Positions 29,644 through 64,000 of a DNA stretch of 64,000 nt are shown here, one piece after another. The notes under the pieces are model-generated. The model was not told the DNA's origin, did no database searches, and was given only the letters and a program-made list of their open reading frames with translations. The DNA comes from Escherichia coli 042 (GTDB lineage Bacteria > Pseudomonadota > Gammaproteobacteria > Enterobacterales > Enterobacteriaceae). Each line of letters begins with the position of its first letter. Positions within the stretch are counted from its first letter, which is position 1. The stretch is from the NCBI RefSeq assembly GCF_000027125.1, contig NC_017626.1, one strand, 5' to 3'. The translations under genes and the position numbers were made by a program.

Positions 29644-29694
29644 TATTTCAGTTCTCTGGTACTAAATGGGGCAAATTGGGGGCAAACTTTGCAA

Positions 29695-30930
29695 CTACGA
29701 TAACCGCGCATTCAACATAGCTACCTGTTCGTCGTTCATGTCATCAATCCACATACCGTAAATTTCATACACCATCTGCGCAGTTTCATGCCCCATCTGG
29801 CTGGCTATAAATGCCGGGTTCGCTCCTGCCGTCAACAGCCAGCAGGCAAAAGTATGTCGCGTATGGTACGGATTACGGCGGCGAATACCAGCACGTTTTA
29901 CTGCTGCATTCCATCTCGCACCCAAACTGCTTACCGAGTAATAAGGTTTCTGTTTTCCGTTACACATCCTGGGCATGAAAACAAAATGCAGTTTGTGCTT
30001 TTCGGTTCTGCCGTACTCCCGATGATAAAAAGTGATTTCGCTTTTGCGATGATGCCCGGTCAGTTTGTATTGCTCCTTCAGTGCTTCAAGAGCTGGCTGT
30101 AGTAGTGTTACCGTCCGGATCCCCGCATTTGTTTTTGGGGGACCGAACATATCAAGTATCGTCAGGTTTCTTCTGACATTCACAATTCCCTTCTCGAAAT
30201 CCACATCCTCCCACGCCAGAGCTGCCAGTTCCCCGTGACGAAGCCCGGAGTAAACGGCAAATTTCCACAAGTTCTGGCTCTGTCCTTTTTCACTTTCCAT
30301 TAATGCATTGAATTCTGTTTTAGATAACGGATCAGGCTTTATTCTGTTTCGCTGTAATTTTTTTACTCCTTCAAATGGTTTGGTTGATATAAATCCCGAC
30401 TGATACGCAAAACGTAACAACGAACAGAGCAGGGCGATATAGTTATCAACTGTGCGCACGGTTCTTCCTTTTTTGTTGGATCTTGGATTATCTAGGTAAA
30501 GTGTTTCTCCATGCAGCAGTTCATTCCGGTAGTTTAAGATATCGCTATAACGAATATGTGATATTGGGGTACTCTCACAAATTATTATCCTGAGTGTTTT
30601 TAATTGTGATTTCGTTTTCTTCATTGTGTTTGTTGTTAACTCTGTCTCTTTAATTTTTGTCCAGATATCACAAAGCTCCCCGAACGTTTTTATGACCCTC
30701 GTTGTCACCATTTTTGCCCCAGTGCTGGACTGGGGAAAACGTCTTAAATACTCAAATTCACCGGAGTTGATTTCATGAACTATCAACGCTCTTAAATTCC
30801 CGGCCTTTTTAATGTTACTGTTAGTAACCTCCCAGCCTTTCAATGTTTCCCGACATCGTTTTCCTCGAAACATGAACCAGATGCGAATGTATTTACCTCG
30901 AATCTCGACACCTGTTGGTAATTTAGACAT
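29695..30930 (-). CDS. intR: Rac-type prophage integrase (tyrosine recombinase)
   Basis: 411 aa; C-terminal R..HxxR..Y catalytic residues (HTRHTFACWL...Y); adjacent to ttcA 5' end. Confidence 0.85.
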   Translation of the reverse strand: MSKLPTGVEIRGKYIRIWFMFRGKRCRETLKGWEVTNSNIKKAGNLRALIVHEINSGEFEYLRRFPQSSTGAKMVTTRVIKTFGELCDIWTKIKETELTTNTMKKTKSQLKTLRIIICESTPISHIRYSDILNYRNELLHGETLYLDNPRSNKKGRTVRTVDNYIALLCSLLRFAYQSGFISTKPFEGVKKLQRNRIKPDPLSKTEFNALMESEKGQSQNLWKFAVYSGLRHGELAALAWEDVDFEKGIVNVRRNLTILDMFGPPKTNAGIRTVTLLQPALEALKEQYKLTGHHRKSEITFYHREYGRTEKHKLHFVFMPRMCNGKQKPYYSVSSLGARWNAAVKRAGIRRRNPYHTRHTFACWLLTAGANPAFIASQMGHETAQMVYEIYGMWIDDMNDEQVAMLNARLS

Positions 30931-30931
30931 A

Positions 30932-31147
30932 TCATGAGTCTTTGATAAACTGATTTATCTTTGGATAGTTGTACCAGATAATCCCTCGCTTACTGTCTGG
31001 TTTCCCTAAAGGAGATACTCGTTTGAAGTGGAAGCCTTCCTCCCAACAGTTCTGACGGTATGCTTCAATTTGTCTGGCCCCCAGACCAGTGCGAAGCATC
31101 AGGCCGTATTCAACCATCCACTCTTCATTAAAGATTACTTGTGCCAT
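30932..31147 (-). CDS. xisR: Prophage excisionase-like protein
   Basis: 71 aa from [10 protein letters not shown]...; immediately upstream of int. Confidence 0.75.
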
Positions 31148-31246
31148 CGCATCACCTCTGGCAGGCGCCAATGTTAGACTGAAATTGACGCCCGATGTTG
31201 ATTATTAATAATCAGCTATGAAGTTTTAATTTGAATACAATGCAAT

Positions 31247-31435
31247 TCACGACGACTGAAGTTTCTCGCAATTAAAATTTATCAGTTTTACTTTCTGCTC
31301 TCTGGAAACGCCTGCTTCTTTTTTACCTGAGAGCATTTTTTCGCATTCTGATTTGGTTAATTTTGTTTTTGAGTACCTTGTCCAGTTAGTAGGAGTGCCA
31401 CCTTCCTTTTCAATAGTGGCGGTAATTTTATACAT
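31247..31435 (-). CDS. ydaC: Rac prophage small protein YdaC-like
   Basis: Start chosen at MYKITATIEK... preceded by GGAGG RBS; start uncertain (in-frame upstream Mets). Confidence 0.55.
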   Translation of the reverse strand: MYKITATIEKEGGTPTNWTRYSKTKLTKSECEKMLSGKKEAGVSREQKVKLINFNCEKLQSS

Positions 31436-61205: not shown

Positions 61206-61253
61206 TTTTCCGTTATTCCCCCTGTGGTACTGCACTACAGGGGGGCGCATTGA

Positions 61254-61715
61254 ATGAGGTTATGGATGTTTATTCTTAATCAGAAAATTATCATCGGTGG
61301 TGAACGCTGGTTTACCCCAATGAAGGACTTAAAACCTGTAGACGGGTTAAAACTGTTGGTGGCAAGCAGCGATAACGATCAGTATCGCTCCCGTAATGCA
61401 TTAATCCGTCGCCACATTGAGAAAATGGATGCCAGTTTGCACGTCGGAACGAAGGAGTTTGATATTGCAAAGGTTTCCGAGGTGGATTCTGTTGATGATT
61501 TACTCATTGATAATGCTGCTCGTTATCTGCTGAAAGACTGGAAAGGGGTTGGTGAACTGGTTGATGGTGTTGAGGTTGCACTGGAATATACGCCAGAACG
61601 AGGGATCGCGCTGCTTAAGCAGAATCCGGAGTTGTACTGGCAGATCCTTGCAGAAGCAGCCAGCATCGCCCAGGGTAAAGAGCAGCAGAAGCAGGATACG
61701 ATAAAAAAGCCATAG
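61254..61715 (+). CDS. Tail assembly chaperone (lambda G analogue)
   Basis: 153-aa ORF ending at TAG 61713..61715, immediately upstream of tape-measure gene; slippery site near 3' end. Confidence 0.6.
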   Translation: MRLWMFILNQKIIIGGERWFTPMKDLKPVDGLKLLVASSDNDQYRSRNALIRRHIEKMDASLHVGTKEFDIAKVSEVDSVDDLLIDNAARYLLKDWKGVGELVDGVEVALEYTPERGIALLKQNPELYWQILAEAASIAQGKEQQKQDTIKKP

Positions 61716-62023
61716 CCGCCCAGCGGTGGTTATCGGAGTTCGGGGGAGAAAAGGGTGAAAAGGCAAGATGGAAGCGAGAAAAACTCAGGTTGCCACCGAT
61801 ACCGGAACCAGAAATAGACCCGGTGCTTAAGGAATTGTTGTACGCCTATTCGGTAATATCCCGTGCCCGACGTTATGCTGGAATGACTGGGGTGCCTTTG
61901 CCTTTATCTCTGACAGAGATAAATGAATATTTAGCCACTCATCCGGTATTGATTGAGCGCGATGAATTTGAAGCAGTGATCTTTGCACTGGATGACCAGT
62001 ATTTTCAGGAGCAGTGTGTGTAG
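61254..62023 (+). CDS. Tail assembly chaperone frameshift product (lambda GT analogue) via -1 shift at 61703..61709
   Basis: ORF 61790..62023 is in the -1 frame relative to G and open back to the slippery site. Confidence 0.5.
61703..61709 (+). promoter_or_regulatory. Programmed -1 ribosomal frameshift slippery heptamer A_AAA_AAG
   Basis: A AAA AAG in the zero frame of the chaperone gene, 2 codons before its stop. Confidence 0.6.
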
Positions 62024-62186
62024 TTGTTAATTACGTACACTCTGTTACAGAGATGTGATGGTGTCTTTAATTAAATCGATGATGCTCCTGGAGAAAAGCA
62101 TTGCGTGGCCTCGTAATCGCTATATCTACTATTATGTCGCCTGAAACCCACTTCGGTGGGTTTTTTGTTGTCAGGAGTTTTAATGA

Positions 62187-64000
62187 ATGGCAGAGCAAAC
62201 CTCGCGTCTCGCAATAATTATTGATAGCACTGGAGCGAAAAATAATGCTGACAATCTGGCCTCCTCATTAGTCAAAATGACGCAGGCTGGGGAAACTGCT
62301 GCAAATAGCGCAGGGAAAGTGACTAAGGCAACAGAAGATGAGAAGAACGCGCTCGCAAAATTAAAAGCAGCTATTGATCCAGTTGGTGCCGCAATTGATA
62401 CTGTCGGTCGACGCTATTCTGAATTAAAGAAATTTTTCGATAAAGGGCTTATTGATAAAGAAGAATATGAATTTCTTGTCCGTAAACTTAATGAAACCAC
62501 AGAGGAATTGAGCGGGGTTGCGCAAGCGCAGAGAGAAGCCGAGAAGGCCGGAAAACTTGCTGCCGCCCAGCAGGAAGCGCAGGCTCAGGTCTTTCAAAGA
62601 ATGCTGGACAAGATCGACCCTCTGGCTGCGGCGCTAAGAAATCTTGAACAACAGCAGGATGAACTTAATGCTGCGTTTGCATCCGGGAAAATAAATGGTT
62701 CTCAGTTTGAGAATTATAGCCGAAAAATACAGGAAACACGGCGAGAGCTTACCGGAGAGGCTCAGGCAGAGCGAGAAGCAGCAAAAGCACATGATGAACA
62801 GGTTGCTGCTTTGCAACGTCTGATTGCTCAACTTGATCCTGTCGGAACTGCTTTTAATCGTCTGGTAGAACAACAGAAACAGCTCAATGAAGCAAAAGCT
62901 AAGGGGATGCTTTCTCCTGAAATGTATGAGGAGCTTTCTGGAAAACTTCGTGCTATGCGGAGTGAGCTTGAGGTTACTCAATCGCAATTAAGCAAAACCG
63001 GAATGTCGGCAAAACAAACGGCTTTTGCTATGCGCATGTTGCCTGCACAAATGACGGATATTGTTGTTGGGTTGTCCACTGGTCAGTCGCCATTTATGGT
63101 GTTAATGCAGCAGGGCGGCCAGCTAAAAGATATGTTCGGTGGGATTGGCCCGGCGATCAAAGGTGTAGGTTCTTATGTGCTGGGATTAATTAATCCTTTT
63201 ACCCTGGCCGCAGCAGCCGTTGGCGTCTTAGGGCTGGCTTACTATAAAGGCTCTCAGGAGCAGGACGAATTTAATAAATCTCTTATTCTTACCGGAAATC
63301 AGTTGGGGACAACCAGCGGGCAATTGGCCGATATAGCTCAACGTGCCGGGAATGCGGCTGATTCGACAACTGGCGCAGCGGCGGCAGTATTAAACCAGCT
63401 TGTGCGTTCGGGAAAGGTAGCGAGCAGTTCGCTGGAGCAAGTGACGACAGCGATAGTAAAAACGAGCGAAGTAACAGGAATATCAACCGAACAACTGGTT
63501 AATGACTTCAATGAAATTGCAAAGGATCCTGTCAGTGCTATATCAAAACTTAATGATCAGTACCATTTTCTGACACTTGCGACTTATAACCAGATTAAGG
63601 CGCTACAGGATGAAGGGAACCAGCAGGAGGCCGCCCGCATTGCGACAGAAGCATACTCATCCTCAATGATCCAGCGCACCAACCAGATTAAAGAAAATCT
63701 TGGTTATCTTGAGACTGCATGGAAAGCTGTCGCAGACTCCGCAAAATGGGCATGGGATTCCATGCTGGATATTGGCCGTGAGGCCTCCCTTGATCAAAAA
63801 ATCTCAGATGTTCTCCGTCAAATTGATGAAATAGAAAAAAATACCCGACCCGGAGTTTTCGGGTTAGGTGGCATTGGAGATGGCGGAGCTCAAAATAAAA
63901 AGCTGGCACGATTAAAGCAGCAATTGGGCGTACTTCAAGCAGAAAAAATTGCTCAGGACGTACTAAATTCATCAATAAACGATTACAACAAGCGACAACA
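62187..64000 (+). CDS. Tail tape measure protein, N-terminal part (continues beyond window)
   Basis: ATG 62187 ([23 protein letters not shown]...), open to window end; coiled-coil rich, internal hydrophobic block, Gly-rich segments. Confidence 0.75.

Follow-up and report, generated by a model that had tools for sequence, protein, structure and literature searches.

A Rac-type prophage in ttcA of Escherichia coli 042 that retains modules deleted from the K-12 copy

The window analysed here is a 64,000-nt stretch of the Escherichia coli 042 chromosome (NC_017626.1), in which the host genes dbpA and ttcA, whose products are 99% identical to those of K-12, are followed by a prophage. Everything from position 29594 to the window end very probably belongs to the genome of a Rac-family lambdoid temperate siphovirus, integrated by IntR and XisR into the 5' end of ttcA. 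The map of the locus (Table 1) draws on an open reading frame (ORF) listing, tblastn searches with the K-12 Rac proteins, the PHROGs, NCBIfam, Pfam and Rfam collections and the PGAP annotation of near-identical loci, all of which agree. The gene families assigned from PHROGs, NCBIfam and Pfam span all functional classes, and the genes follow the canonical lambdoid order of int-xis, recombination, exclusion, repressor/cro, replication, nin, Q, lysis, packaging, head and tail. An original prediction, made from the letters of the sequence, had described a Rac-type gene order beside ttcA; the K-12 protein searches and family assignments bear out this order, with the element actually sitting within ttcA.

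The alignment with K-12 Rac (NC_000913.3 1411899-1434958) that had been proposed as a check of identity returns collinear DNA blocks and the IntR/att junction at ttcA. By tblastn, IntR, XisR, RcbA, RalR, RacC, KilR, SieB, YdaF, YdaG, YdaT, YdaU, YdaV, the N-terminal part of YdaW, RzoR, TrkG, YnaK, YdaY and YnaA are 90-99% identical to their K-12 counterparts. The left-arm genes (rcbA, ralR/RalA, racC, ydaE, kilR, sieB, ydaF and ydaG) stand in the K-12 order at identities of 73-99%, whilst YdaT, YdaU, YdaV, trkG and the late genes orthologous to what remains of ynaK, ydaY and ynaA in K-12 reach 93-99% in collinear DNA. Most of the Rac genes that the original prediction had listed by name are orthologues of the K-12 genes in the expected order, but the recT-position gene and those in place of racR and ydaS proved to be non-homologous replacements.

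Judged from these alignments, K-12 Rac corresponds to this element with clean deletions in its interior. The first of these, of window positions 41428-47324, joins 41427 to 47325 with the loss of 5.9 kb (the nin region, Q, the tRNAs, holin and endolysin), yielding the ydaW fusion and the rzpR pseudogene. Another, of 49756-61363, joins 49755 to 61364 with the loss of 11.6 kb (terminase through tail tube) and yields a short ynaK next to ydaY. The K-12 tape-measure gene is truncated after window position 63121, and K-12 is devoid of everything from there to lomR. The proposal that the present copy, unlike that of K-12, keeps a Q-like gene, a full lysis cassette and terminase, portal, capsid and tail genes is upheld, the K-12 deletion junctions mapping exactly onto the window.

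Table 1. Features of the prophage and its target gene (positions in the window)
Feature	Position	Strand	Evidence or remark
ttcA, host target gene	28708-29643	-	98.7% identity to K-12 TtcA
attL core TTGTTCAGGTTGTAT	29594-29608		Inside ttcA 5' end; equals first 15 bp of the 26-bp core common to K-12 attL/attR
intR, tyrosine integrase	29695-30930	-	98.5% to K-12 IntR; phrog_1
xisR, excisionase	30932-31147	-	98.6% to K-12 XisR; phrog_539
rcbA-like DUF1187 gene, 62 aa	31247-31435	-	K-12 RcbA tblastn, PHROGs
RalA, antitoxin small RNA	31251-31429	+	Rfam RF02694, 215 bits
ralR, toxin	31428-31622	-	90-99% to K-12 RalR
RecT-family annealase, 367 aa, not K-12 RecT	31686-32789	-	phrog_561 E 2e-153; PF03837
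recE, exonuclease VIII, 1007 aa	32789-35812	-	NCBIfam NF007259 above cut-off
racC	35914-36189	-	96% to K-12; PHROGs
ydaE	36264-36434	-	73% to K-12; PHROGs
kilR	36434-36655	-	96% to K-12; PHROGs
sieB, superinfection exclusion	37086-37574	+	99.4% to K-12 SieB
ydaF	37571-37726	-	98% to K-12
ydaG	37738-37872	-	91% to K-12
Immunity repressor, DicA-like helix-turn-helix (HTH), 139 aa, not RacR	38160-38579	-	phrog_5736 and others; weak NF007257 DicA match; PF01381 only
Three operator-like sites TGWAC-N5-GTTCW	38572-38586, 38605-38619, 38629-38643		Divergent repressor/cro region
Cro-like HTH protein, 84 aa, not YdaS	38659-38913	+	phrog_35; also gene-called in near-identical loci
ydaT, CII-like	38910-39332	+	97-99% to K-12
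ydaU, O-like or primosomal	39345-40202	+	97-99% to K-12
ydaV, DnaC-like loader	40209-40955	+	97-99% to K-12
DUF1627 gene, full-length form of K-12 ydaW	40978-41739	+	K-12 tblastn, family matches
DUF977 Ren-like gene	41755-42171	+	Family matches
queH, epoxyqueuosine reductase	42356-43021	+	Family matches; in nin-like region
hok/sok toxin-antitoxin	43089-43414	+	Rfam/family matches
NinB/DUF1367 gene	43881-44480	+	phrog_319
YbcO/DUF1364 gene	44480-44770	+	phrog_131
Q-like antiterminator, DUF1133 family	44767-45303	+	phrog_753 E 4e-78
tRNA-Thr(UGU) and tRNA-Gly(UCC)	45666-45819	+	Between Q-like gene and lysis genes
S21-type holin	46596-46811	+	PHROGs, translation
Endolysin, hydrophobic N-terminal SAR-like (signal-arrest-release) segment	46811-47308	+	PHROGs, translation
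Rz	47305-47769	+	PHROGs, translation
Rz1 lipoprotein, embedded in Rz	47525-47710	+	Translation
trkG, potassium-transporter moron	47907-49364	+	99.2% to K-12 TrkG
ParB_N protein, full-length, 263 aa	49502-50293	+	K-12 ynaK is its first 86 codons
TAGT/GREB1-like glycosyltransferase, 310 aa	50286-51218	+	Pfam TAGT (TET-associated glycosyltransferase) E 1e-34
Small ORF	51196-51405	+	ORF listing
Terminase small subunit (terS)	51409-52503	+	PHROGs (terminase pair: phrog_51, phrog_2, phrog_10250)
Terminase large subunit (terL)	52484-53785	+	PHROGs (as for terS)
Portal	53788-55194	+	PHROGs; no internal stops
Mu-F/SPP1 gp7-like head protein	55178-56290	+	PHROGs; no internal stops
Scaffold	56395-57159	+	PHROGs; no internal stops
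P22-family major capsid protein	57258-58397	+	PHROGs; no internal stops
Small head ORF	58440-58664	+	No internal stops
Head-tail adaptor, head closure, neck, tail terminator, tail tube (60243-61205)	58668-61205	+	PHROGs; no internal stops
Tail assembly chaperones G/GT	61266-62023	+	phrog_313, phrog_1189; G-like gene (ydaY) ends 61715
Tape-measure gene, first 604 codons	62187-64000	+	Ends at window edge; K-12 ynaA is its first 312 codons

The att core was identified by comparison with attL and attR of K-12 and with the distal junction of APEC O1, whose Rac-like CDT-IV (cytolethal distending toxin) prophage at ttcA (NC_008563.1, about 1466970-1519300) served as comparator. It lies inside ttcA at 29594-29608, about 50 bp to the left of the start first proposed, which had sought the boundary at 29644-29700. 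Positions 29609-29643 are the first 12 TtcA codons as supplied by the prophage, which also provides the region upstream of ttcA; the TtcA N-terminus encoded by this arm is a third variant, unlike both K-12 TtcA and ttcC'. Neither a second core nor P-arm sequence occurs in the 64-kb window, and attR must therefore lie outside it. The distal end would read GTTGTGATTTTTGCCCTTAC followed by TTGTTCAGGTTGTAT, and relatives do possess a P-arm and core junction at their distal ends. In APEC O1 (L004 7274-7757) and in strain K56-43-un (L027 4925-5283) the P-arm and core run into an attL arm of K-12 type that bears int' and DUF1627' fragments, which implies that an older Rac remnant received a new Rac-type phage in its attL. 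The distal end of the prophage in both strains also holds cdtABC (CDT-IV), a hydrolase and an omptin.

The abutment of an intact prophage on an older remnant at the distal att of APEC O1 and K56-43-un is also what lends some weight to a composite locus, in which at least two tandem Rac-type elements, or a recombinant assembled in situ, would take the place of one phage genome. The element in the window is mosaic too, its early half being nearest to two other loci (L005 and L012) and its late half to APEC O1, with minor patches of divergence in the ParB and portal genes. Set against this, the window contains a single att core and each module once, in canonical lambdoid order, and positions 33881-54480 align without a gap to one element of the closest relative, the draft E. 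coli genome GCA_014103675.1, from which they differ by 3 mismatches in the first 15 kb and by the small patches in the ParB and portal genes. A composite origin is consequently judged improbable, and one phage genome is the preferred reading.

The recombination genes do not form a K-12-type RecE/RecT pair. K-12 RecT has no BLASTP or tblastn similarity to the protein at the recT position or to anything elsewhere in the window, and the adjacent RecE is 75% identical over K-12 residues 1-734, falling to 29% in its C-terminal nuclease domain (tblastn). As RecT is dissimilar and the RecE nuclease domain strongly diverged, while the N-terminal 734 residues are Rac-like, the annealase and the nuclease domain of its partner appear to have been exchanged together. 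The swapped segment spans 31686-33656, with the exchange point within recE. This is a module swap within the Rac family, found likewise in K56-43-un and strain 135, and the exact RecT-like protein is recorded in two other contigs only.

The immunity region, likewise, is not of the RacR/YdaS type, and other ttcA prophages also have differing repressors, some family members carrying one of the LexA family. The match between the window repressor and RacR is confined to 33 HTH residues and that between the Cro-like protein and YdaS to marginal HTH similarity. With RacR and YdaS replaced, the window copy is heteroimmune; its repressor has no match to that of APEC O1 either, and so represents another immunity type. 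We infer that the three TGWAC-N5-GTTCW palindromes between the divergent genes are the operators. A leftward early operon would carry the recombination, kil and exclusion genes, and a rightward operon the CII-like YdaT, the replication proteins YdaU and YdaV, the nin-like region and the Q-like antiterminator. A late operon would comprise the pinholin/SAR-endolysin/spanin lysis genes, the trkG moron, the Terminase_2/Terminase_6 pair, a P22-coat/SPP1-type head and a lambda-type tail.

All genes that can be seen in the window are intact. None of the 26 late ORFs has an internal stop, the early genes are of the same lengths as in near-identical loci, and the frameshifts or premature stops in structural genes that would have told against the original prediction are absent from the window. 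The programmed G/GT frameshift is also preserved, since the T-like frame is open from 61679 to 62023 in the -1 frame and the slippery heptamer A AAA AAG at 61703 is in the right phase.

Comparison with related loci provides evidence of recent movement. Relative to a metagenome contig (L005), the window shows 86 mismatches in 28625-29581, which lies in ttcA (about 9% divergence), and the flank further left is 87% identical, whereas only 7 mismatches occur in 29582-42789. Identity thus rises precisely at the att core, from about 91% to 99.95%, which is the pattern expected if one phage integrated site-specifically into two diverged hosts. In L005 and L006 (locus 14100-21104) alike, the early region is about 99.9% identical and the ttcA/dbpA flank 87-91%; the host of both is presumably a non-E. 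coli, Escherichia-like bacterium. A scan of genome contigs for the phage-arm sequence found it in five species representatives, including a Citrobacter metagenome-assembled genome. APEC O1 differs from the window by 2.3% over 28227-31676, which covers the ttcA flank and the left arm of the prophage, yet is near identical in the late half. The 3 mismatches in 15 kb against GCA_014103675.1 also speak for recent movement. Since near-identical copies occur in hosts with flanks diverged by 9-13%, with the break in identity at the att core, the lineage has moved recently.

Intact genes and recent movement between hosts together make it plausible that the prophage is still a working phage, for which the chances seem to us about evenly balanced. 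Several observations weigh against a functional phage. The 139-aa repressor has no S24 peptidase (self-cleavage) domain in PHROGs, NCBIfam or Pfam; no LexA box of the form CTGT-N8-ACAG occurs in the 64 kb, although this exact-consensus scan would miss degenerate boxes; and no N-like antiterminator was identified among the window genes. The promoters, the function of the operators and the Q-utilisation site are predicted only. Only the first 1,812 nt of the tape-measure gene, which measures 3,234 nt (1,077 aa) in relatives, fall inside the window, so that the tail tip, J, the fibres and attR (the distal third) lie beyond base 64000. Furthermore, close copies are decaying: the terS gene, intact here, carries a nonsense mutation, Q67*, in APEC O1 (L002 23409-24503), where the side-tail-fibre gene (stf) is split as well, and K56-43-un (L001) has frameshifts in the tail tube gene, sieB and a racC-like gene.

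As the repressor is without an S24 domain and a consensus LexA box was not found, classical SOS induction is not predicted; neither of the features that would mark an SOS-inducible prophage, an S24 repressor or a LexA-controlled antirepressor, is seen. Induction of this prophage by mitomycin C, which the original prediction had put forward as a test, is doubtful on sequence grounds and, if induction does occur, RecA-stimulated self-cleavage of the repressor is an unlikely route.

The lesions of the decaying relatives, each a single inactivating change in a near-identical copy (the terS nonsense codon and split stf of APEC O1, the frameshifted tail tube of K56-43-un), favour a grounded, defective prophage, which looks intact in the window and has been inactivated by a lesion outside it or in a regulatory site. 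An element of this kind would be kept for its cargo (trkG, sieB, ralR, kilR, hok/sok and queH). K-12 Rac illustrates the grounded end state, and the abundance of ttcA prophages fits long residence: the late module is present at a coverage of at least 80% in 681 of 5,426 complete E. coli genomes, about one in eight, and Rac, reported to be intact in EDL933, occurs in 69% of 638 strains (PMC6379469). Conversely, no lesion is found in any of the approximately 55 genes visible in the window, and 99.95% identity across hosts with 9-13% diverged flanks, breaking at the att core, points to recent transfer by integration and not to old vertical descent. We therefore rate a grounded prophage, and with it retention for cargo, as a serious contender that falls somewhat short of even chances. 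For the working-phage reading, a more specific picture is put forward only tentatively, and as less probable than either of these: the lineage may be a circulating, non-SOS-inducible temperate phage that crosses Escherichia species via ttcA and may carry a DNA-modifying pair of ParB_N and TAGT/GREB1-like proteins.

This pair lies directly upstream of terS, with no TET or methyltransferase gene nearby, and the TAGT-like protein is labelled 'GREB1-related' by PGAP in another strain. The two genes may form a DNA-modification module. A PADLOC search of the accessory proteins returned nothing, save for a resemblance of the ParB_N domain to the N-terminal portion of methyltransferase models. The large terminase subunit has no match among solved structures, which gives no assignment of packaging type.

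The rcbA-like gene stops 7 codons before K-12 rcbA (62 versus 69 aa); since APEC O1, K56-43-un and strain 135 have a product of 62 aa annotated at this position too, this is not a private lesion. The family matches of YdaT, YdaU and YdaV are to phrog_163, phrog_6451 and NF009043. Downstream of hok/sok lie 466 bp without a supported gene (locus 43089-43881). The same position in APEC O1 and K56-43-un holds a Doc-family toxin and one more hypothetical gene, which points to a hot spot for cargo insertion. A further stretch of about 690 bp between the tRNAs and the holin gene (45820-46509) has no convincing ORF, the small ORFs there being without support, and contains two terminator-like hairpins that face each other (46181-46200 on the plus strand, 46232-46255 on the minus strand). 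An Rfam search of the Q-to-holin spacer at a permissive threshold recovered the two tRNAs only, the remainder being noise. The lysis cassette shows no differences from that of APEC O1, and the GC content in the trkG region is 38% (48000-48999).

Beyond annotation the locus is of little significance, given that active Rac-like ttcA prophages are published and the late module is common. Nevertheless, the window pictures K-12 Rac as it was before its deletions, with base-exact junctions, and it shows a RecT and a RecE nuclease domain exchanged as a unit, together with a further immunity type. The sequence also gives direct evidence of a transmissible, or very recently transmissible, lineage in the break of identity that diverged hosts show at the att core. 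If the terminase packages by headful, a guess from its module type, lateral transduction of the adjacent chromosome would be possible.

In comparison with known systems, the modules have several affinities. The lysis genes are of the phage 21/DLP12 type, sharing an endolysin with a G/A-rich hydrophobic N-terminus and an Rz with embedded Rz1, and the holin here belongs to the Phage_holin_2_1 family with a dual-start MKSM; the endolysin N-terminus, plainly visible in the translation, presumably resembles the SAR signal of R21. The tail is of lambda type, with the G/GT frameshift and a lambda-like tape-measure protein, whereas the head and packaging genes are of the P22-coat/SPP1-gp7/Terminase_6 type and not lambda Nu1/A/E. 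Downstream of the full tape-measure gene, relatives have lambda-like genes for M, L, K, I, J, Lom and fibres, to which B2 strains add cdtABC. 'Phage' records (vB_EcoS-...R..) that contain the late module were rejected as evidence of viability, being in-silico prophage regions of clinical isolates and not isolated virions. The best match to the early half among complete E. coli genomes is 97% identical over 91% of its length, and Rac-SA53 (KU052037.1) shares the early arm but not the late module.

K-12 Rac has the same integration site and att core, and in ydaW, rzoR, ynaK, ydaY and ynaA it keeps fragments of genes found whole in the window; it differs in RecT, the RecE nuclease domain, RacR and YdaS, all replaced in the window, and in its variant of the TtcA N-terminal arm. 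APEC O1 has the same module order, as does K56-43-un, and 8 nt separate it from the window across the 19.2 kb of the late half (44771-64000); it is set apart by a K-12-type recET, a different 139-aa repressor, the Doc-toxin insert, terS Q67* and the split side-tail-fibre gene. Sp10/CP-933R of O157:H7, an active Rac-like prophage (PMC4632033), and KingRac, likened here by its published description only, are lambdoid prophages related to Rac that occupy ttcA and carry full structural modules. KingRac, described by Frazao et al. (2019) from an E. coli commensal of mice, measures 46.8 kb and yields tailed particles; in the mouse gut it took the place of K-12 Rac at ttcA. It responds weakly to mitomycin C and probably also transduces the neighbouring fnr region (PMC6731689, PMC12251178). 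With full-length and active relatives at ttcA published, a Rac-type prophage that keeps the modules missing from K-12, such as the one in the window, is of an already known kind.

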